Below are positions 1,356-58,900 of a stretch of 64,000 nt of DNA, in pieces; the first letter of the stretch is position 1; the number at the start of each line of letters is the position of its first letter. A program made the translations under genes and the position numbers. The DNA is taken from contig JBFWNV010000010.1 of the NCBI GenBank assembly GCA_050250875.1, forward strand, positions 22,221 through 86,220. The letters run 5' to 3'. Source of the stretch: Vicinamibacterales bacterium (GTDB lineage Bacteria; Acidobacteriota; Vicinamibacteria; Vicinamibacterales; UBA2999). The notes below the pieces were generated by a model. The model saw nothing but the letters and a program-made list of their open reading frames with translations, did not search any database and had not been told where the DNA came from.

Positions 1356-1445
1356 CGCGGCGTCTGCTGTCAGCCTAGCAGCCCGGGAGCGGCGTGGCCG
1401 AACCGAGACCGGCCGGGCTGGCGTATCGTGGGGACGGCCCTCGTG

Positions 1446-2339
1446 ATGAACCCGCCGCCGTCCTTCGGCATCGTTCCCCCCGGATTCCGCCTGCCGGACG
1501 CCACGCACGTCGGCGCCATGCGGCTGCAGGTCGGCGATCTCACCCGGTCGCTCGAGTACTACACCGACGTCCTCGGACTGCGCGCCGTCCGCGCCACCGA
1601 TGCGGCGGCGTGGCTCGCGCCGGCGGGCAGCGATCGGGTGCTGGTCGAGCTGCAGGCTCGCCCCGGCGCCCGGCCGGTGCCGCGCCAGGGCCGGCTCGGG
1701 TTGTTCCACTTCGCGATTCGCGTGCCCGACCGCCCGACCCTCGGCCGCTTCGTGCGGCACCTCGCCGACCGCGGCGTGTACGCCGGCAGCGCCGACCACG
1801 CCGTCAGCGAAGCCCTCTACCTGACCGACCCCGACGGCCTCGGCATCGAGGTCTACGCCGACCGCCCGCGCGACGCCTGGCGTCTGGCCGGGCGTGAGCT
1901 CTACATGACCACCGAGGCGCTGGATCTGCGCGACCTGGTGCGCGCCGCCGGCGACACGGCGTGGACGGGACTGCCGGCCGGGACGACGATGGGCCACGTG
2001 CATCTGCACGTCGGCGACCTGGCCGCCGGCGCGGCGTTCTACCACCTCGCGCTCGGCTTCGATCAAGTGGTGTGGAGCTATCCGGGGGCGCTCTTCCTGT
2101 CGGCCGGCGGCTATCACCACCACCTGGGCACCAATACCTGGGCCGCCGGGGCGCCCCCGGCCGAGGAACACGAGGCCCGCCTGCTCGACTGGGCCCTGGT
2201 GCTTCCGGACGCGGCATCACGTGACGCCGCGGCGGCCAGCCTGCAGGCCGCGGGCTACGCCACCACCGGCGACGGCCACGACGTCATTGCCCGCGATCCC
2301 TGGGGCACGGCGGTGCGTCTGCAGGCCCCGCAGACGTAA
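1446..2339 (+). CDS. VOC family protein, catechol 2,3-dioxygenase (CatE)-like
   Basis: GLFHFAI, DHAVSEALYLTDPDGLGIEVYADRP, MGHVHLHV, GGYHHHLGTNTW motifs in the C-terminal part of ORF 366..2339. Confidence 0.85.
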   Translation: MNPPPSFGIVPPGFRLPDATHVGAMRLQVGDLTRSLEYYTDVLGLRAVRATDAAAWLAPAGSDRVLVELQARPGARPVPRQGRLGLFHFAIRVPDRPTLGRFVRHLADRGVYAGSADHAVSEALYLTDPDGLGIEVYADRPRDAWRLAGRELYMTTEALDLRDLVRAAGDTAWTGLPAGTTMGHVHLHVGDLAAGAAFYHLALGFDQVVWSYPGALFLSAGGYHHHLGTNTWAAGAPPAEEHEARLLDWALVLPDAASRDAAAASLQAAGYATTGDGHDVIARDPWGTAVRLQAPQT

Positions 2340-46392: not shown

Positions 46393-48552
46393 CAGAAATC
46401 CAGGCGCACGCCGCCGTTGATGGCCCGGCCATCGAGCGGCGCCCACGCGTCCACCGTGAGGCGGCCGTCCGGACCCGGGTGCGGTCGGAGCAGGCGGTCC
46501 CAGCGGGTCTGTCGTACGTCCGTGACGTTCTCGGCGTTGATGAACACGCGGACCCGTCCGACGCGGCGCTCGGCCAGCATACCGGCGATCACGTAGGGAC
46601 GCGACTGGTCTCGATACGGATTGACCTCGAGGCGCTGGCGACCCGTGTAGTACAGCTCGAGGCCGATCCGTCCGGCGTCCTCGGCTTCCCACATCCCGAC
46701 CAGCCCCGCGCCGTGCCGCGGCGTGAGTTCGGCGTCCTGCCGGCGGGCGCGCTTCGCCCTCGCGCGACCGCACGTAGGTGTAGCTGGTGGTGGCCACGTA
46801 GGGCCCGCGACGCCACGTGCCGAGCAGCTCGAGTCCGGCGTTGGTCGCGGCGGCGGACTCGTTGAACAGGACGAACGCGTCGGCGCGCTCGACCCGCAGC
46901 GGATCGACGATGCGCGACCCGAAGACGGTCGCGGTGGCCGTGCCCCACGGGAAGGTGCGGGTGAGATCGATCGACGCGCTGGTGCCGCGTTCCGCCTTCA
47001 GCGGACCACGGATGGTCAACCGCGACAGGCCGGCGGCCTCGGTCTCCTCGGTGAGCGGCGTCGCCGCGAAGAACCCCTGCCCCACCGACGCCCGGCTGGT
47101 CCACGCCCCCGAGCGCAGCAGCGCCGACACCCGCGGGCTGAAGAACGTGCCGTACTCGCTGTGATGGTCGACGCGGCCCCCGCCCGACACCGCCAGCCAC
47201 GGCGCCGCCTGGATGTCGGCCTGGGCGAACGCCCCGGGCACGTCGTAGGTGTAGGCGAACTGTCGGACATCACGCGGCCGGTAGGCATCGCGCTCGTAGG
47301 CGACGCCGGCCACCCAGGTGGTCGGGCCGGCCGCGCCACGCAGGGCCACCTCGGAGAAGACATTGCCGTAGCGATCGCGCTCGCGCGCCGCCCCGAACGT
47401 GTGATCGTGCCGCTGCCAGGTGGCGGAGCCCCGCGCCGTGAGCACGAAGCGGCCGCCGACGAGCGTCTGGACATGCCCCCCGACGTCGTAACGGCGCGTG
47501 TCGAGCGCCTCGCGGTAGGCCGCGCCGGTGGCCGGCAGCACGGCATCGTCCATCGTGCCGCCCTCGCGGTCCTCCCAGGTCAGCCCGGCGGTGAGGAAGG
47601 CCGATCGACCGCCGCCGCCATCCCAGAAGGCACGCGGCCGGACGACGGCGCGCCGATAGCCGGCCAGATCGGCCCACCCGTCGTCGTCGCGGTCGTTCTT
47701 CATCTGGCCATGGCCGCCGGCGAGCAGCGATCCGCTCCATCCCTCGCGCGCGCCCGACGACAGAAACATCACCGCATCGGTGGCGCCCAGCGTCGAGGCA
47801 TTGAGCAGGACGTCGTAGGCGGGCTCGCCGCCCGGACGCCGCGACAGCAGGTTGACCACGCCGCCCATCGCGCCGGCCCCGTAGAACGCCGACGCGACGC
47901 CCTTGATCACTTCGACCTGGCCGAGATCCATCGGCGGGATCTGCAGCAGGCCGAGCCCGCCCACCTGCTGGCCGAAGAGCGGCAGCCCGTCGCTGAGAAA
48001 GCGGGTGTAGCGGCCCTTCATGCCCTGCACGCGCACGCTGGCGGCGCCGATCGAGGGCGACGTCGCCTGCACGCGCAGCCCACCCATCTCGTTGAGCATC
48101 ATCACGATGTCGCCCGGCGTCATCAGCAGCTTCTCTTCGATCTCCTCGCGGCCGATGACCTCGACACGGGTCGGCTGATCCTCCAGGCGGCGGCCGGTGC
48201 GGGTGCTGGCGACGACGACGACCTCCTCTTCGATCTCCGGCTGTTCGGAGAGCTCGACCTCGAGGGTCGCGGTCTGGCCGGCGGCGACCTGGGCCTCGGC
48301 TCGAGCGGCGACGAAGCCGTCCTTGGTCACCACCACACGCACGGCGCCGGCCGGCACGTCGAGCACCGCCGCGCCGTCGTCACCCGTCTCGGCCGTTCGC
48401 TCGGCCACCGTCACTGAGGCATCGGCAACCGGCTCGCGCTCGCTCCGCACGACGACGCGGAGTCGGCCGCGCGGCTCCTGGGCGAGGGCGTCAGCCGGAG
48501 ACACGAGCAGCCAGATGGCCAACAGCCGGCCGACCGCCGCGACCGACGTCAT
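46392..48552 (-). pseudogene. TonB-dependent receptor with a single frameshift near 46745 (real or assembly error)
   Basis: Plug motifs (VEVIKG.ASAFYGAGAMGGVVN) lie in one frame; the C-terminus (ELTPRH...FINAENVTD...GGVRLDF*) lies in another. Span 2161 bp = 3n+1. Confidence 0.8.
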
Positions 48553-49313
48553 CGACGCGATGCCCGGGAGACCGATCCCTCGTGCGAGCTCGAAGCGCGC
48601 CGGAGCAGCACGACGCCGGCGCACACGGCCATGAACGCCAGCACGTGCGCCACCGCGAACGGACCGACGAGCGGCTGGCGCCAGCGCAGGAACTCGATGC
48701 CGAAGCGCACCAGTCCCGTCGAGACGAGATAGGCGCCGAGCACGAACGCGTCCGGCCGGCCCTGCCCTCGCCAGCGCTGCAACAGCCAGGCGATCGGCAG
48801 CAGCGCCACCGTTTCGTAGAGCTGCGTCGGATGGACGGGCACCGTCGTCGGCGGCAGTCCTTCGGGGAACGCGACCGCCCACGGCAGGTCGCTCGGGATG
48901 CCGTAGTCGTCGCCGACGAGGAAACAGCCGATGCGGCCGATCGCGTGTCCCAGGGCGAGGGCCGGCGTGGCCGCGGCGACGACGGCCACGATCGACAGCC
49001 GATGCCGGCGCAGCATCACGATGCCGGCGAGCAGGCCGCCGGCGAGGCCGCCGAACCAGCTCAAACCGCCGCGCGACAGCAGCAGTTCGAGGAAGGGGCC
49101 CTCGCGCCCCGCGTGCTCGAGGGCCCACACCAGCTTCGCCCCGGCCAGGCCGCCGACCACACCGGCCATGGCGGCATCGAGCGCGCCCTCGGGAAGTCCG
49201 GACCGCCGGCGTTCGCGGTCGAAGACGTAGATGCCGACGGCGGCGGCGATGGCGACGAGGACGCCGAAGCTGGTGACCTCGTACTCGCCGATCCGGAACA
49301 GGACGGGAATCAC
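48549..49313 (-). CDS. lgt: Prolipoprotein diacylglyceryl transferase family protein
   Basis: GGLSWFGG, IGRIGCFLVGDDYG, VHPTQLYE, RFGIEFLR; 4-bp overlaps on both sides. Confidence 0.8.
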   Translation of the reverse strand: MIPVLFRIGEYEVTSFGVLVAIAAAVGIYVFDRERRRSGLPEGALDAAMAGVVGGLAGAKLVWALEHAGREGPFLELLLSRGGLSWFGGLAGGLLAGIVMLRRHRLSIVAVVAAATPALALGHAIGRIGCFLVGDDYGIPSDLPWAVAFPEGLPPTTVPVHPTQLYETVALLPIAWLLQRWRGQGRPDAFVLGAYLVSTGLVRFGIEFLRWRQPLVGPFAVAHVLAFMAVCAGVVLLRRASSSHEGSVSRASRR

Positions 49314-50194
49314 ATCCAGAACCTTACGCCAAGTGTCAGCCGTGTGCTGCTCGTGCGCTCGCCGGCGGCTTCGGCGCGGTCGGCGGTGCCGAAGAAGCGG
49401 CGGTTCCAGACCACCCCGACGTAGGGCGCGAACTCCCGCTTGAACTCATAGCGCAGGCGGACGCCGAGGTCGGCAGTGGACAGCCCGGTGCCGATGTGGC
49501 GTTCGGGGTCGGAGCGGCCGTAGATCTCGAACTCGACCAGCGGCTGCAGCACGAGGCGGTTGGCCAGCAGCAGGTCGTACTCGGTCTCGACCCGAATGTG
49601 GGAGCGGCCCGAGACGTCGAGGTAGGCCGAGGCTTCGACCTCGAACCAGTACGGGGCCAGGCCCTGCACGCCCACCGCCAGCGCTGTACGCGGGGTGCCG
49701 GGCAACGTGTCGAGACGGATGCCGGCCGTCGCGTCCCACCAGCGCGAGATGGCCCGGCCGTAGAGCAGATGGGTCTGCGCCTGCTCGGTGCGGCCGCCGG
49801 CGCGGTCGCCCTCGGTGCGGAACCAGAACCGGTGGCGGTCCTGGCCGATCCACCCCTTGGTGTCCCAGCTGAAGGCGTCGTCGCCGCGGCCCGCCTGCCA
49901 TTCGAACTGGTCGAACAGCACGAAGTAGTTGATGGCCGTGTCGTGCACGGCATGGCCCTGCACGTCGGGGAACGCGGCCTGCCGGTCGGCGTCGGTGACC
50001 GGCGGAATGAACTCCGGCAACGACACCGGCGCCGGCGGCTGGTGCGCCGAGTGGTCTTCGGCGGGCGGCGGAGGCGGCGGCGTCTGCCCGTGCTGGTGCG
50101 GCGGTTCCGGGCTCGGTGTGGGCGTCTGCGCCTGCGCGGCGAACGGATCCGCCAGCATCAGCAGCGCCACGAGACCGGCAGCGGCTGGCGTCAT
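49310..50194 (-). CDS. copB: Copper resistance protein B
   Basis: LFDQFEW, GVQGLAPYWFEVEA, LRYEFKREFAPYVGV, GVRFW; His/Pro-rich N-terminus. Confidence 0.92.
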   Translation of the reverse strand: MTPAAAGLVALLMLADPFAAQAQTPTPSPEPPHQHGQTPPPPPPAEDHSAHQPPAPVSLPEFIPPVTDADRQAAFPDVQGHAVHDTAINYFVLFDQFEWQAGRGDDAFSWDTKGWIGQDRHRFWFRTEGDRAGGRTEQAQTHLLYGRAISRWWDATAGIRLDTLPGTPRTALAVGVQGLAPYWFEVEASAYLDVSGRSHIRVETEYDLLLANRLVLQPLVEFEIYGRSDPERHIGTGLSTADLGVRLRYEFKREFAPYVGVVWNRRFFGTADRAEAAGERTSSTRLTLGVRFWM

Positions 50195-52035
50195 GACGTG
50201 CGGCCCTCGTCGACGCGCACCTCGCGGAACATCCCGGCTTCCATGTGGAACAGCAGATGGCAGTGATACGCCCAGCGGCCGAGGGCATCGGCGGTCACCC
50301 GGTAGCTGCGCCGCGCCCCGGGCGGCATGTCGATCGTGTGCTTGCGCACCTTGAAGCGCCCCTGGTCGTCCTCGAGATCGCTCCACATCCCGTGCAGGTG
50401 AATGGGGTGCGTCATCATCGTGTCGTTGACCAGGACGATGCGGACGCGCTCGCCGTAGGTCAGCCGCACCGGCTCGGCGGCCGAGAACTTGACGCCATCG
50501 AACGACCAGGCGAAGCGCTCCATGTGGCCGGTCAGGTGCAGCTCGATCGTGCGGGTCGGCTCACGGCCGTCGGGATCGGCGAACGTGCTGGTCAGGTCGG
50601 CATAGGTCAGCACGCGCCGGCCGTTGCCGCGCAGGCCGATGCCCGGGTCGTCGAGCTTGGCGGTGGGCGACGTCGTCTGCATGTCGACGAGCGGATTGCC
50701 GGCTTCGGTCGGCGGGTGGGCCTGGGTGGCACCGCCCATGGTCGACATGTCGTGGCCGGCGTGAGGATCGGCCGCGACCGGCGGCGGCATCGCGTGGCCC
50801 GCATGCGGGTCGTCCGCGGCGGGCGGCGGGCTCGGCATCACGTGGCCCGCGTGAGGATCGGCGGCGGCCGGGACGGAAGGGGTCGGCGCGGCGCCCGCGT
50901 CGTGACCGGCGTGGCCCGCATGGCCCATGTCGGTCATGGTCAGCACCGGGCGCGGATCCACGTCCGGCACCGGCGCCGACAGGCCGGCGCGGATGGCGAG
51001 CGTGCCGGCGGCAAAGCCGGTGCGATCCATCGCCTGCGCGAAGATGGTGAACGCCTCCTGGCCGCTCGGCTCGACGACGACGTCGAAAGTCTCGGCCACG
51101 GCGATGCGGAACTCGTCCACCGTCACCGGGCGCACCGGCAGTCCGTCGGCGGCCACGACGGTCATCTTCAGCCCCGGAATGCGCACGTCGAAGTACGACA
51201 TCGCCGATCCGTTGATCAACCGCAGCCGCACCTTCTCGCCCGACGCGAACAAGCCGGTCCAGTTGCCCGCCGGCGTCTGCCCGTTCATCAGGTAGGTGTA
51301 GGTGTAGCCGGTGACGTCGGCGAGATCGGCGGCGCTCATGCGCATCTCGCCCCACGCCTTCCGCTCGGCCAGCGTCGCGCCCAGACCGCGCTCCCGCACG
51401 TCGCGCAGGAACGTGGCCAGCGTGCGCTGCCGGAAGTTGTAGTAGTCCGACTGCTTCTTGAGCTTCTTGAAGACGCGCTCGGGATGTTCGTCGGTCCAGT
51501 CGGTGAGCATCACGACGTGCTCGCGATCGACCTGGAACGGCTCGGGCTCGCGGGGCTCGATGATCAGCGGACCGTACACGCCCTGCTGTTCCTGGAACCC
51601 CGAATGGCTGTGGTACCAGTAGGTGCCGTGCTGCTTCACCGTGAAGCGGTAGCGATACGACTGGCCGGGATGGATGCCCGAGAAGCTCAGCCCGGGCACG
51701 CCGTCCATGTTGGCCGGCAGGATGATGCCGTGCCAGTGAATCGACGTGTCCTCGTCGAGCCCGTTGGCGACGTCGAGGGTGATCGTGTCGCCCTCCTTCC
51801 AGCGCAGCAGCGGCCCCGGCAGCGAGTCGTTGATGGTCAGCGCGGTGCGCGGCCGGCCGGTGAGGTTGACGTCGGTCTCGCCGATCCGGAGGCTGAACTC
51901 CGTCCCCGACAGCACGCCTGAGTCGCGGCGCGCCCGTGACTGCGCCCATGCCGGCTGACGCAGCAGGCCGACGCTGGCGGCCGCGCCACAGGTGGCGAGG
52001 CCCTTGACGAACGTCCGTCGCGACGGTCGGTCCAT
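50191..52035 (-). CDS. copA: Copper resistance multicopper oxidase CopA/PcoA (Tat)
   Basis: SRRTFV Tat motif; HWH, HSH, HPIHLH and HCHLLFHM copper motifs; His/Met-rich insert. Confidence 0.95.
   Translation of the reverse strand: MDRPSRRTFVKGLATCGAAASVGLLRQPAWAQSRARRDSGVLSGTEFSLRIGETDVNLTGRPRTALTINDSLPGPLLRWKEGDTITLDVANGLDEDTSIHWHGIILPANMDGVPGLSFSGIHPGQSYRYRFTVKQHGTYWYHSHSGFQEQQGVYGPLIIEPREPEPFQVDREHVVMLTDWTDEHPERVFKKLKKQSDYYNFRQRTLATFLRDVRERGLGATLAERKAWGEMRMSAADLADVTGYTYTYLMNGQTPAGNWTGLFASGEKVRLRLINGSAMSYFDVRIPGLKMTVVAADGLPVRPVTVDEFRIAVAETFDVVVEPSGQEAFTIFAQAMDRTGFAAGTLAIRAGLSAPVPDVDPRPVLTMTDMGHAGHAGHDAGAAPTPSVPAAADPHAGHVMPSPPPAADDPHAGHAMPPPVAADPHAGHDMSTMGGATQAHPPTEAGNPLVDMQTTSPTAKLDDPGIGLRGNGRRVLTYADLTSTFADPDGREPTRTIELHLTGHMERFAWSFDGVKFSAAEPVRLTYGERVRIVLVNDTMMTHPIHLHGMWSDLEDDQGRFKVRKHTIDMPPGARRSYRVTADALGRWAYHCHLLFHMEAGMFREVRVDEGRTS
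50747..50860 (-). repeat. Three DPHAGHxM peptide repeats in CopA
   Basis: DPHAGHVM, DPHAGHAM and DPHAGHDM separated by Pro-rich spacers; DPHAGH also occurs in the CusB tail. Confidence 0.7.
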
Positions 52036-52141
52036 GATCCGACATCCCTTCCGAACACGGCGCGACCACACGGGCCGCGGCAATTGCCGACTACCAGACC
52101 TGGAGGCAGAACCGGGGCGGGAACGCCCCGTGACCGCGGGA

Positions 52142-52615
52142 TCAGATCCGCAGAACGGCGGGCGTGCGAGGCGGAGAGGGCGGAGTGGGCGGTGGAGCGG
52201 TAAGGCGCGGACGCGTCTCCGGGAGCCAGATGACGGCGGCCGAATCGTGAGCGGTGAGCGTCGCCAGCAGCGCCTGCGACTGCGGGTTCTGCCGCAGCGG
52301 CGCAACGGCTGGCACGGTCGTGGCGACGCCGTCGGCGCAGCACTCGTCGCACGCCGCGGTCCACTGCCCCGAGGTCGCCGGCGCGGGCGGTACGGCCACC
52401 GCGTCGGCGTGTCCCATGGCGTCGTGGTCGTGAGCCGCGGCCGCGGCAGCTGGCACTGCGGCTGTCGGCACAACGCCACCTGGCCCGCCGTCGAGTCCGG
52501 CGTGACCGGCGGTCGGCGGCAGGCACAGTGTCACGCACGCCGACAGCACGGCCGGCGCCCCCGCGAGGGTGAGCACCGTCACGAGGGCCGCGACGCGCCC
52601 GACCATTGCCATCAT
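52142..52615 (-). CDS. CopL/CutF-like Cys/His leader protein upstream of copA
   Basis: Hydrophobic N-terminus, CVTLC, HDHDAMGH, CDECC, Pro-rich tail ending PAVLRI*; TATACT at 52619-52624 just upstream. Confidence 0.7.
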   Translation of the reverse strand: MMAMVGRVAALVTVLTLAGAPAVLSACVTLCLPPTAGHAGLDGGPGGVVPTAAVPAAAAAAHDHDAMGHADAVAVPPAPATSGQWTAACDECCADGVATTVPAVAPLRQNPQSQALLATLTAHDSAAVIWLPETRPRLTAPPPTPPSPPRTPAVLRI

Positions 52616-52647
52616 CCGAGTATAGCCCCGGACGCCGCTCCGGCGGC

Positions 52648-55080
<2,433 letters not shown>

Positions 55081-55128: not shown

Positions 55129-55269
55129 CTACTTGGCGTACTGACCGGGGTTCGCGTCGAACTTCGTCTTGCAGCCTTTCGAGCAGAAGTAGTACGTCTG
55201 CCCCTGGTACTGGCTCGTCCCCGCGGCCTTGGCCGGGTCCACCTGCATCCCGCACACCGGATCCTTCAT
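55129..55269 (-). CDS. Stand-alone YHS/TRASH domain protein (46 aa)
   Basis: MKDPVCGMQVDPAKAAGTSQYQGQTYYFCSKGCKTKFDANPGQYAK*; GGAGG RBS; absent from the ORF track. Confidence 0.9.
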   Translation of the reverse strand: MKDPVCGMQVDPAKAAGTSQYQGQTYYFCSKGCKTKFDANPGQYAK

Positions 55270-55293
55270 GGTCGTCCTCCCCTTCTACCCTCC

Positions 55294-55333: not shown

Positions 55334-55909
55334 CTAACGTTTTCCGCAGGAACAGTCGAGGCACCCGTGTTCGGCGCAGGTACCGCACGACCGCACGACC
55401 TGCTTGCGCAGCGCCTCCCGCGCCCGGAAGAGTCGGACGCCGGCATTCGACGGGGTCAGTCCCGCTGCCTCTGCAAACGCCTTGACGGGGGTGTCGTCGA
55501 CGTCCACCGCGCGGATCGCCTGGGCGTACTCGGGCTTGAGGGTCTGCGCCAGCCGTCCGATGCAGGCGCAAATCTCCTCGCGCAGCTCGGCCGGCGGCGC
55601 GGCCGCGTCGGCCATCTCCCGGGTAAGCGCCGCGAGCCCGCGTGCCTCGGCGCCCCGACGCCGGTAGCGGTCGATCGCCGCATTGCGCAGCACGCGGTAG
55701 AACCACGGCACCAGACCGTTTTCGGGGACGGCGGCAAAGCGATCCAGGTTGCGGACGAAGGCGTCCTGCAGGATGTCCTCGGCGAGCGCGCGGTCGCCGA
55801 CCCGTCGCTCGAGGTAGCGCAGGAACGCGCGGTGGTTCTCGACGAGGATGTCAGCTGCCTGCCGATCCATGGTCACGGCATCCGCGCCCGGCTCTGCGTC
55901 TCCGCTCAT
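55334..55909 (-). CDS. CorE-like ECF sigma factor with a C-terminal Cys-rich domain
   Basis: AEDILQDAF, WFYRVLRNAAIDRYR, CAC between regions 2 and 4, tail CGTCAEHGCLDCSC. Alternative start at 55870. Confidence 0.88.
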   Translation of the reverse strand: MSGDAEPGADAVTMDRQAADILVENHRAFLRYLERRVGDRALAEDILQDAFVRNLDRFAAVPENGLVPWFYRVLRNAAIDRYRRRGAEARGLAALTREMADAAAPPAELREEICACIGRLAQTLKPEYAQAIRAVDVDDTPVKAFAEAAGLTPSNAGVRLFRAREALRKQVVRSCGTCAEHGCLDCSCGKR

Positions 55910-55913
55910 GCCG

Positions 55914-58900
55914 TCAGTATAGGCAGGCACTGGAGTGGGCGGGCAGGGCCGCCACCTGGTGCCGTCGCCACATGGTGTACGCCGCTGGCAATACGAGCAG
56001 GGTGAGCACCATGCACGACCACAGGCCCCCGACCACCGGCGCGGCTGTGCGCGCGGAGACGTCGGCGCCCACGCCCGATTCCCAGAGCAGCGGCAGCAGC
56101 CCGAGCACCGTCGTGGCCACCGTCATGAGCAGCGGTCGCACCCGCGCCGACGCCCCTTCGATGACGGCCGCGTCCACGTCGGCAGGCACCTGGATGCGGC
56201 CTTCGCGCGTGTACCGCGCAAAGGCCTCGTCGAGGTACACCACCATCACGATGCCGGTCTCGGCCGCGACGCCGGCCACGGCGATGAGCCCCACCCACAC
56301 GGCGGTGGACAGGTTGTAGTGCATGTACGACAGCAGCCAGACACTGCCGGCCACCGCGAACGGCAGGCTCGAGAGCACGAGGAACGTCTGGGGCCACCCC
56401 TGCATCGAGAGGCGGAGCAGGATGACGACCAGGAGGAGTGTCAGCGGGATGACATAGCGGAGACGGGCCTCCATCTCCGCCAGGAACTCGTATTGTCCGG
56501 TCCACTGCAGCCGGGAGCCGGCCGGCAGCGTCAGCTGCGCCGCGACAACGGCTTTGGCGTCATCCACCCAACCGCCGAGATCGCGCTGGGTCTGGTCGAT
56601 GTCGGCGAAGACATACCCGACGAGCACGCCATTCTCGTCCTTGATCATGGGCGGCCCGGTCGTCACCCGCACGTCGGCGAGCTGTCCGAGCGGGACGGAT
56701 GCGGCGGGTTGGCGCCACTGCTCGAGGAAGTCGGGGTCCGACGTCGCGGTCCCGCCCATCGGGGGCTGCGACACGCCCGACGCCATGCCGCCAGCCGTGG
56801 CCGGCCGCGCTCCGCCGCCGCCCATTCCGCCCATGCCCCCGCCACCGGCCGCCGTTAGACCCACCAGTCCGGCGCCCGCCCCACTGGCGCCCGCCCCGGT
56901 ATTGGTGCCAGCGACGTCGACCAGGGCGCCTGTGGAGGGGACGGGCACGAGCAGCGCCCGCAGGGCCTCCGGGTCCGACCGCTGATCGGCGGCGACGCGG
57001 AGATTGATCGAGAAGCGCGCCCGACCGGCGATCGCCGTCGACACAGGCATGCCCCCGATGGCCGCTTCCACCACGTCCTGCACATCGCGCACGGTGAGCC
57101 CGTAGCGGGCGATGGCCGTCCGATCGGGCGCGATATCCACGTACTCGCGCCCCGTCTGACGCTCGGCGAACGTGCTGCGCGTGCCGGCCACCTGCCGGAG
57201 CAGGCCTTCCAGGTGGACGCTGATGCGCTCGATCTCGTCGAGGTTCTCGCCGAACACCTTCACACCGACGGGCGTCCGCACGCCCGTCGTCAGCATGTCG
57301 ATCCGGGTCCGGATCGGTGGCGCGATCGCCATCTGATAGCCGGGCATCCGCAGTGCGGCATCGAGGTCGCGCGAGAGCTGCGCCAGCGTGCGTGGCTCCT
57401 GCTCCGGCCAGAGGCGGCGGAGGACGGCCCGCTTGAGCCAGTCGGGCGCGTAGTTGCTGTGCCAGCGCGGGGTGTAGCGGGTGGGCCACTCCCCTCGGGG
57501 CTTCAGCGTGACCACCGACTCGATCATGTCGAGCTGGGCCGGATCGGTCGCCGTCTCGGCACGGCCGGCCTTCCCATGGACCGACCGCACCTCGGGGAAG
57601 CGCATGATGATCCGGTTCTGCACCACCAGCGCCCGGCGCGCCTCCTCGATCGCGATGCCGGGAAACGTCGTCGGCATGACCAGCAGTGAGCCCTCGTCGA
57701 GCGGCGGCATGAACTCCGACCCGAGCCGCTGGAACACCGGCACGGTGGCCACCATCAGCGTGATCGCGATGAGCACCACCACCACGCGCGCCCGCACGAC
57801 GAGCGTCGCCACCGGGCGGTAGACGGCGCTCAGCAGGCGGCTGACCGGGTTCGTGGCGTCGGTGCGGAAGCGCCCCCGGAGCAGCAGCACCATCAGTGGC
57901 GGCGCCAGCGTGATCGACAGGATCGCCGCCGCGAACATCGCGAAGGTCTTCGTATAGGCCAGCGGCGTGAAGAGCCGCCCCGCCTGGCCGGCCAGCGTGA
58001 AAATCGGCAGGAAGCTGATCGTGATGAGGAGCAGCGAGAAGAAGATCGGCCGTCCCACCTCCTTGCACGCGTCGACGATGACCCGCTTGCGGTCGCTGCC
58101 CGCCGGCGCCGCGGCCAGGCGTACGTGGGCGTTCTCGATGAGCACGATGACCGCGTCGGCGAGTTCACCCACCGCGATGGCGATGCCGCCGAGCGACATG
58201 ATGTTGGACGTCAGGCCGAGGTAGCGGATGGCGATGAACGACATCAGCACCGACATCGGCAGGACGATCATCACGACCAGGGCCGAGCGGGCGTGGAAGA
58301 GGAAGACCAGGCAGATGATCGTGACGATGACCGCCTGCTGCACGAGGGTGTTGGTCAGCGTCTTGACCGAGCCGATGATGAGTTCGGACCGGTCGTAGGT
58401 GGGAATCAGGCGGACGCCGTCGGGCAGCCGCAGCGTGGCCATCTGTGCCTCGAGGGCACGGATCACGTCGAGGGCATTCGAGCCGATCCGCATGACCACG
58501 ATGCCGCCGACCGTCTCCCCCGTGCCGTTCAGATCGGCCGCGCCGCGGCGGATGTCGGGGCCGTACCGGACGCGCGCAACGTCGCGCAGGCGGACCGGGA
58601 TCCCGCCTCGGCCCACCGCGACGACGCTGCTCTCGAGGTCCGCCAGCTCCTTGACGTAACCCCGGCCGCGCAGGACGTATTCACGCCCCGCGAGCTCGAG
58701 CACACGGGCTCCGACTTCCGCATTCGCGTCGCGCACGGACCGCGTGATGTCGCTGAGCGTCACGCCGAAGCCGACGAGCCGGTCGGGGTCGACGACGATC
58801 TGGTATTGACGCTGGAACCCGCCGAGTGAGGCTACCTCCGCCACGCCGGTGACCGCCTGCAGCGCCGGCCGGATCGTGAAATCCTGCAGGGTGCGCAGTT

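Follow-up and report, generated by a model that had tools for sequence, protein, structure and literature searches.

CutF, a DUF2946 protein of the Rhodobacter capsulatus cutFOG operon, carries a Sec signal, CxxxC and, at its C-terminus, PPP (PMC9973294; bioRxiv 10.1101/2025.02.05.636593). CopL of Xanthomonas was proposed to be isofunctional with CutF, and neither of the two acts in trans (PMC9973294); according to work cited in PMC9973294, the induction of CopA by copper reportedly requires CopL in cis. CruR of Bordetella pertussis is described as a DUF2946 upstream open reading frame (uORF) with CXXC and RAPP motifs, which acts through Rho (PMC9426467). Here we describe an open reading frame (ORF) lying ahead of copA-copB in a 64-kb stretch of DNA (72.5% GC) from a Vicinamibacterales bacterium (Acidobacteriota), which will be called the window and to which all positions refer. 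By analogy with these systems we think it fairly probable that this ORF, the copA leader, would be a cis-acting copper-sensing leader peptide for copA-copB, the counterpart in function of CutF in Rhodobacter and of CopL in Xanthomonas. The comparison with CutF and CopL had been suggested in a first-pass annotation of the sequence, and in the light of PMC9973294 it was apt. The mechanism itself is known from the published CutF and CruR work; the leader family is new and unannotated.

Similarly to CutF, the copA leader is a small ORF directly upstream of a gene for a multicopper oxidase exported by the twin-arginine translocation (TAT) pathway. Both have a CxxxC motif and a Pro-rich C-terminus with PPP, followed by Arg and a hydrophobic end (...GPPPRL in CutF, ...RTPAVLRI in the copA leader), the export signal of CutF has a putative counterpart in the hydrophobic N-terminus of the copA leader, and in both cases the downstream gene's Shine-Dalgarno (SD) sequence is predicted to be sequestered. 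There is, however, no detectable homology between the two proteins, they differ in length (118 amino acids in CutF, 156 in the copA leader) and in phylum (Pseudomonadota vs. Acidobacteriota), and it is the copA leader whose tail ends in a near-invariant LRI-stop and whose promoter signature is that of a leaderless transcript. The anti-SD of CutF is in an intergenic stem-loop, whereas the candidate anti-SD of the copA leader falls within its own last codons. CopL, encoded by copLAB of Xanthomonas and Stenotrophomonas, shares the gene order copL, copA, copB, a spacer of ~115 nt in pLH201.1, a hydrophobic N-terminus, a His/Cys-rich middle part with CC and a Pro-containing C-terminus (...HLIRPPIG), but it has neither a CxxxC at the end of the signal segment nor the LRI-stop.

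CruR, a uORF that senses copper, resembles the copA leader, a putative sensor, in its Cys motif, in an arrest motif with R-A-P close to the C-terminus and in a rut-like 3' end in which C exceeds G. The Cys spacing of the copA leader (CVTLC) is, however, that of CutF and not the CXXC of the DUF2946 logo described in PMC9426467, and the RAPP found three residues before the end of CruR has no exact counterpart: positions -8 to -5 read RTPA in the copA leader, and RAPL (29/132), RTPL (11) or RSPL (11) in members of its family. CruR negatively controls a TonB-dependent importer via Rho, and its signal peptide is dispensable, whereas the gene downstream of the copA leader belongs to a resistance operon. 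The logic is also that of SecM, VemP, MifM and TnaC, whose nascent chains make the ribosome pause close to the leader's 3' end and remodel the downstream mRNA or block Rho; the arrest sequences are different, and by analogy the signal here would be periplasmic copper and not secretion activity or tryptophan.

Results

The copA leader and its family

The leader and the gene it would regulate comprise the following features.

52619-52624, minus strand: TATACT, a -10-like box located 6 nt before the second ATG (52612), putative promoter of a leaderless transcript
52142-52612, minus strand: copA leader, 156 amino acids and stop (TGA, 52144-52142)
52520-52612, minus strand: hydrophobic N-terminal segment (residues 1-31), similar to a signal peptide or membrane anchor, ending in lipobox-like LSAC and CxxxC
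52145-52198, minus strand: Pro-rich C-terminal tail APPPTPPSPPRTPAVLRI, candidate ribosome-pausing or arrest segment
52130-52230, minus strand: C-rich, G-poor rut-like tract (C ~47-53%, G ~23-27% in 78-nt windows) covering the Pro-rich codons and the stop
50191-52035, minus strand: copA, TAT-exported multicopper oxidase, the gene taken to be regulated; TAT motif MDRPSRRTFVKG, TIGR01480 match (1.3e-291), Pfam Cu-oxidase domains

The ORF translates as MMAMVGRVAALV...CVTLC...HDHDAMGH...CDECC...APPPTPPSPPRTPAVLRI-stop, and these motifs, the hydrophobic N-terminus and the Pro-rich tail lie exactly where the first-pass annotation had placed them. Coordinates also bore out the 106-nt distance from the leader stop to the copA ATG (52035-52033) and the end codons CGG ATC TGA, which are identical in the window's other leader. 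There are in-frame ATGs at 52615, 52612 and 52605; we set the start at the second one (52612), in register with the GTG of the homologues, with 52615 as the alternative. The GC content of the three codon positions (0.79/0.65/0.83) is consistent with the reading frame. At the N-terminus a basic residue is followed by a hydrophobic stretch resembling a signal peptide or membrane anchor; the Cys codons of the CxxxC are at 52537-52535 and 52525-52523.

Full-length relatives were found by phmmer and profile searches of related genomes and by a scan of 185,579 species genomes. Five of six source records were labelled as metagenome-assembled genomes of Acidobacteriota; the sixth was labelled Bifidobacteriaceae and carried the same leader as locus L002. 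After removal of duplicates (L014, identical to L002, and L018, identical to L003) the family set consisted of 21 loci, 18 of them with a defined start (alignment A2); it must be noted that these loci come from related genomes and are not independent. A profile search of 1.84 billion representative proteins returned 271, 110 and 18 clusters at E<=1e-3, 1e-10 and 1e-30, respectively. Among the 150 best representatives 141 had the CxxxC and 140 ended in LR[IV] (LRI in 122, LRV in 18). Both Cys residues of the CxxxC are invariant or nearly so in the family alignments, and the His-rich and CC motifs are further hallmarks. The consensus of the tail, PPxPPSPxRAPLVLRI-stop, was derived from 132 sequences chosen for their LR[IV] ending, by which positions -3 and -2 were fixed. 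Since the tail Leu, Arg and Ile/Val are each encoded by three different codons in the family, it is the peptide, and not the RNA alone, that is under selection. The stop codon is UGA in 20 of the 21 loci.

Where a downstream ORF could be called (19 loci), the next gene coded for a CopA with TAT signal in 13, at a distance of 98-166 nt (228 nt in one locus, after correction of the start), and for a cytochrome c in four. In a subgroup (L003, L013, L017, L019, L062-L065) the downstream product is a membrane-anchored cytochrome c (Cytochrome_CBB3, 9.6e-10), which begins ~108-110 nt after the leader, and the spacer (...UUGAUUCCAGUUCAGUCGUAGG...) is strongly conserved.

The search for homologous proteins with alignment A2 yielded no more than 10, all of them named simply "hypothetical protein" and all lacking Pfam domains. 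Gene callers extend the ORF upstream, and database entries for relatives are often 180-190 amino acids long. Many of these gene calls (among P0012-P0158) are 20-30 residues too long and read through the -10 box, which appears as in-frame ...YTR.V... directly ahead of the probable start. The rules used by Ozturk et al. 2023 to recognise CutF-like proteins (PMC9973294) include a length below 150 amino acids, which the copA leader exceeds. It does have PP in its last 15 residues (PTPPSPPRTPAVLRI), as do 91 of the 132 family members, its neighbour is copA at 106 nt, and the N-terminus probably qualifies as the signal peptide that these rules ask for. Because of its length and the upstream-extended gene calls the family would have stayed outside that survey. 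One of the 29 CutF-like clusters in PMC9973294 might already hold an LRI-type tail. Literature searches found no paper on an acidobacterial CutF/CopL-like leader or on the LRI-stop motif.

A metagenome scan with the copA-leader protein found no relative; one with alignment A1 found five distant loci, among them no close orthologue suitable for a covariation test of the copA-leader pairing. In a check of public runs, 23 were listed, nearly all of them DNA metagenomes and available as contigs only, and four were compared. Two short metatranscriptome contigs from one library span 52025-52352 with nine differences each; the start, strand and level of a transcript are not readable from them, they represent the sequence of a relative and the library may have contained DNA, thus no inference on transcription or transcription start was drawn. 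Judged by its sequence conservation, the copA-leader ORF belongs to a real, conserved and unannotated family in Acidobacteriota.

A leaderless promoter signature

A TATA[ACG]T box precedes the in-frame start in 18 of 22 loci (TATACT in 14, TATAGT in two, TATAAT in two). The starts following the box are GTG in 16 loci and ATG in two, at a distance of precisely 6 nt in 17 of them and of 7 nt in the remaining one; the box is missing from L015, L031, L034 and the first leader of the window. Within the 64 kb of the window TATAMT-N6-RTG occurs twice, in front of the copA leader and of the sigma factor gene described below, where 0.03 sites would be expected. Genome-wide, TAnAnT was followed by ATG or GTG 163 times at a spacing of 6, where 107 of the starts open an ORF of 150 codons or more, and 108 times at a spacing of 7, compared to 17-34 times (4-16 with a long ORF) at spacings of 0-5, a peak which suggests that the organism uses leaderless mRNAs widely. 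In the alignment of the upstream regions of 18 loci only the TATACT(CGG) box was conserved, with no -35 element or operator, and a consensus scan of 51900-52800 found no sigma70 promoter with a -35 element. The suggestion of the first-pass annotation, that the predicted transcript of the copA leader is leaderless and starts from the TATACT box, is well supported by the presence of the box in most loci and by the genome-wide spacing peak.

The leader as a nascent chain or as a folded protein

AlphaFold2, run with 132 sequences, predicted for the copA leader a single confident helix (residues 2-31, pLDDT ~90), which includes both Cys of the CxxxC; confidence was low for the rest of the chain (pTM 0.28). 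Such a prediction fits a nascent-chain sensor and not a folded protein. It is conceivable that the ORF encodes an ordinary trans-acting copper-binding protein, small and periplasmic or lipid-anchored, and that the RNA pairings described below are incidental to a GC-rich intergenic region. Conservation of the Cys, His and CC motifs along the whole length of the protein would be compatible with this, as would the lipobox-like LSAC, the lgt paralogue located just after copB, and a spacer fold that is not significantly stable. We nevertheless consider it quite improbable: AlphaFold2 gave no globular fold, the LR[IV]-stop is near-invariant, and a Pro-rich tail with this ending is common to two otherwise dissimilar families. 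Moreover, the gene always directly precedes a metal gene of the same strand, the two being separated by a structured spacer of ~100-170 nt, and the closest analogues, CutF and CopL, do not act in trans (PMC9973294).

A second leader in the window

62092-62436, minus strand: leader 1, 114 amino acids from GTG 62436, ending ...LVTPLRI-stop (TGA 62094-62092), ahead of an efflux operon of copper type coding for an outer membrane efflux protein (OEP), a membrane fusion protein (MFP) and a resistance-nodulation-division (RND) pump

The first-pass annotation had regarded the copA leader as a second, divergent copy of the same leader architecture, one mechanism being used twice in the cluster. The position of the CxxxC, the LRI-stop and a helix between tail and SD are indeed common to the two leaders. 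In leader 1 CUCCGGAUCUGA and UCAGAUCCGGAG, the latter at the OEP gene's SD, form a perfect helix (12 bp including GGAG), and the fold of the spacer is unusually stable (z=-5.47). Kinship in the sense of descent was not borne out: hhalign of leader 1 with the copA-leader family aligned 25 columns around the CxxxC only (E=0.0032, probability 10%), and because of this homology of the two leaders is not claimed.

Leader 1 has relatives in ~30 of 401 genomes at E<1e-6 (a tally of 70/401 at E<=0.01 includes weak matches and one unpublished genome, which was left aside). The relatives in this second family end in ...LRI, with six Arg codons and all three stop codons in use. An apparent compensatory change distinguishes leader 1 (CGG AUC/GAUCCG) from L051, L054 and L056 (CGA AUC/GAUUCG).

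The promoters of the two leaders also differ. A sigma54-type TGGCAC-N5-TTGC sequence, the only exact match in the 64 kb, is located at 62460-62474 on the minus strand, 23 nt upstream of the GTG of leader 1, and a GG-N8-TTGC box is found 22-30 nt upstream of the GTG in all 16 second-family loci with an identified start (L042-L058). Upstream of the sigma54 box the window has a Peptidase_M28 gene, and no gene for an enhancer-binding protein was seen there. As far as the sequences allow to judge, the two leaders share architecture and the LRI-stop, their promoters differ, and homology is not demonstrable.

RNA folding and comparison with known families

The elements involved in the predicted pairings at the copA copy are listed below.

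52036-52052, minus strand: copA initiation region, with SD-like GGAAGGGA (52052-52045) and GGGAUGUCGGAUC (52048-52036), the 3' arm of the helix proposed by the first-pass annotation
52138-52148, minus strand: GAUCUGAUCCC, the 5' arm of that helix (last codons, stop and 4 nt), pair probability ~0.01
52114-52129, minus strand: hairpin GGGGCG-UUCC-CGCCCC, beginning 13 nt after the leader stop
52173-52180, minus strand: CCCUCUCC, Pro-Ser-Pro codons, predicted alternative anti-SD partner of the copA GGAAGGG

The observations that weigh against a cis-acting copper-sensing leader come from the folding of this RNA, from the family comparison and from the known protein models, and all folding results must be read as thermodynamic predictions in a sequence of 72.5% GC, where strong helices form easily. 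In its exact form, the model of the first-pass annotation states that 52148-52138 acts as an anti-SD which pairs with 52048-52036 up to the copA AUG, and that a ribosome arrested at the LRI-stop would melt the helix. The pairing can be drawn as described (11 bp, one G-U, a 2-nt bulge), but the helix was not in the minimum free energy (MFE) structure: the MFE was -61.1 kcal/mol, the best structure with the helix had -58.3, i.e. 2.8 kcal/mol higher, and the probability of the individual pairs was ~0.01 each. The duplex (-17.5) did not outperform 300 dinucleotide shuffles of the start region (mean -19.1; p=0.68), and the fold of the 131-nt spacer was not unusually stable (z=-1.47; 15/200 shuffles equally stable). 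Of the nested spacer stems described in the first-pass annotation, GGGGCG-UUCC-CGCCCC is part of the MFE structure, whereas the CGCGGUCAC/GUGGUCGCG stem is drawable yet absent from both the MFE structure and the constrained optimum. An Rfam scan of 51900-52750 found no family; the sole match was a chance microRNA on the opposite strand (E=0.27).

Across the family, 11 of 20 loci have only a weak tail:SD helix or none, and the tail:start duplex beats shuffles (p<=0.08) in only six. In the family of leader 1, several loci have the complementary segment 30-50 nt upstream of the start and not on the SD. The established protein models did not recognise the leaders: aligned to them as the first-pass annotation had proposed, neither window leader matched PF11162 (DUF2946; gathering score 23.7 bits) or NF033807 (CopL_fam; cut-off 40 bits) at E<=10, Pfam and NCBIfam yielded no other match to them at this threshold, and PF11162 matched none of the 132 family members at E<=1. 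With X. citri CopL (NZ_CP018859.1) as a positive control NF033807 gave 112 bits (2.7e-32), while hhalign of A2 with the same protein gave a probability of 0.44%. A six-frame search of the organism's own genome with PF11162 yielded nothing over the cut-off; neither leader was among its three weak matches. In a protein atlas the 30 best matches were all unnamed clusters; the nearest neighbours with a name included a cluster with DUF2946 in 23% of its members, at a score of 0.93, which is a lead and no more. It should be added that the C-terminal LRI could be a degradation or sorting signal.

The exact model is not without support. The expected number of tail:start pairs is six or more in 9 of 20 loci, compared to 3/20 and 1/20 when the arms were displaced by 25 and 50 nt, respectively; leader 1, with its perfect 12-bp version and stable spacer, is one of the nine. 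Loci L021, L004, L028, L026 and L002 are among those in which the duplex beats shuffles, G004, from the same genus, has retained a comparable pairing (AUCUGAU-CCC / GGG-UCA-AUCAGAU) at the copA AUG, and the apparent compensatory change in the second family is in agreement with it. In the G004 locus itself (L025, ~1380-2010, minus strand) the orthologous leader reads ...PLVLRI followed by TCG instead of TGA, an apparent 1-nt insertion which lengthens the ORF by ~37 codons, so that it ends 30 nt ahead of copA; this may be a genuine mutation or an artefact of the assembly. A conserved CCAGnUCnG element ~50 nt after the stop was also considered as a general partner of the tail and discarded, since good pairing is confined to this window (11 bp, part of the MFE structure), as opposed to ~4 bp elsewhere (A4 loci, by eye).

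At the copA copy other results point away from the stop codon segment. In a short folding window the copA AUG was within a local hairpin, and in three of four longer windows the copA GGAAGGG (52052-52046) paired with the Pro-Ser-Pro codons CCCUCUCC (52180-52173). Ribosome occupancy was simulated by masking a footprint in the folded mRNA. The unpaired fraction of the copA SD was 0.14 in the free mRNA, and it rose to 0.57-0.68 with a ribosome on the PSPP or PPP codons; with a ribosome at the stop codon it stayed at 0.14, as it did in a mid-ORF control. Moreover, the tail Leu codon of the copA leader is CUG, hence the CUCC anti-SD of other loci is missing here. For the copA copy the folding predictions favour the proline codons 52180-52173 as anti-SD over the stop codon segment, and the exact model of the first-pass annotation appears doubtful.

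In the region following the stop, scoring identified a GC-rich hairpin of varying stem sequence at stop+12 to stop+14 in 12 of 21 loci; visual inspection added three more in which it forms the inner stem, the copA copy included. RNAalifold on a MAFFT alignment of the 21 post-stop regions found no consensus structure, the stems being out of register.

A possible role for Rho

In the last ~100 nt of the leader C exceeds G, because of which a Rho-based mechanism of the CruR type stays a rival. According to this explanation a ribosome pausing on the tail or at the stop would shield a Rho loading site at the leader 3' end and allow read-through into copA, otherwise transcription would terminate in the spacer; shielding could operate alone or together with unmasking of the SD. 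The C>G bubble at 52230-52130 resembles that of cruR, and the consensus R-A-P at -8 to -6 is reminiscent of the DUF2946 RAPP arrest motif (PMC9426467). The almost exclusive use of UGA recalls TnaC, where release factor 2 is reported to be inhibited (PMC8450073), and the fixed-offset hairpin found in most loci is a possible pause site. On the other hand, Pro-rich coding is necessarily C-rich and the bubble may be a by-product, no intrinsic terminator or similar site was found in 51900-52800, and stalling in CruR is relieved by copper, which is the opposite of what a resistance operon needs. On balance we consider Rho attenuation unlikely.

The copper island

Along the minus strand, to which all its genes belong, the island begins with leader 1 (stop at 62092) and the OEP/MFP/RND genes ending at 55914. 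The order then continues with the genes listed here, the copA leader and copA lying between the ATPase and copB.

55338-55909, minus strand: sigma factor of the extracytoplasmic function (ECF) type; best NCBIfam match SigZ-like, below the cut-off
55130-55270, minus strand: 47-amino-acid Cys-rich ORF MKDPVCGM...YYFCSKGCK..., resembling a YHS or zinc-ribbon motif, between the sigma factor gene and the ATPase
52648-55080, minus strand: copper P-type ATPase (YHS/HMBD) with N-terminal YHS domain, adjoining the copA leader
49310-50386, minus strand: copB (Pfam CopB), 3' of copA
48549-49313, minus strand: paralogue of lgt (prolipoprotein diacylglyceryl transferase), directly after copB

The C-terminal extension of the ECF sigma factor is Cys-rich (...CGTCAEHGCLDCSCGKR), and its gene has its own leaderless signature, TATACT-N6-ATG. 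This protein may resemble the copper-sensing CorE type. The 47-amino-acid ORF had no significant family match. If the lgt paralogue is considered together with the lipobox-like L-[SA]-A-C of the leader family, the residue to be lipidated would be the first Cys of the CxxxC.

Discussion

The gene family with its conserved motifs, the promoter box and the predicted sequestration of the SD emerge from the sequence analysis itself. By analogy with the described systems we infer for the copA leader export, copper binding, pausing and a choice between two anti-SD segments, and the following sequence of events can be proposed. The transcript would begin, leaderless, at or beside ATG 52612. The leader peptide, which is expected to be exported co-translationally and to be largely unstructured and rich in Cys, His and Pro, would be brought to the membrane as a nascent chain by its hydrophobic N-terminal segment. 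At the periplasmic face Cu(I) would be bound by the CxxxC and the His and CC motifs, and binding of copper would slow the release of the tail (PPP...PPSPPRTPAVLRI-stop) from the ribosome. The paused ribosome would cover the C-rich 3' end of the leader, which is otherwise predicted to be paired with the ribosome-binding region of copA, and copA would be translated; it may also shield the rut-like tract from Rho. For the copA copy the helix drawn by the first-pass annotation is no more likely than an anti-SD formed by the proline codons, a contribution of Rho, or the two together.

A more far-reaching proposal, which we make only tentatively, is that ...(P)LVLRI-stop may represent an arrest or termination-pause peptide not recognised before, common to two otherwise dissimilar Cys/His leader families of Vicinamibacteria-type Acidobacteriota, one with a leaderless TATACT start and one with a sigma54 promoter, and that it links periplasmic copper sensing to the expression of copAB and of an RND pump. 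If this were true, the last codons would have two roles, coding for the peptide that arrests the ribosome and supplying a strand of the switch helix. With two natural paired cases in one cluster, constraint at the RNA level and at the peptide level could be compared on the same codons. There is also a lesson for annotation, as gene callers carry the ORFs of this leader family upstream across the -10 box.

The use of nascent exported leader peptides as post-transcriptional copper sensors is a recent concept (CruR in 2022, CutF in 2023-2025), studied only in Pseudomonadota. The locus described here would extend the principle to Acidobacteriota, through a family of "hypothetical" proteins missed by the DUF2946 and CopL models, to leaderless transcripts, and to a different C-terminal motif, the LRI-stop, which is a candidate arrest sequence.

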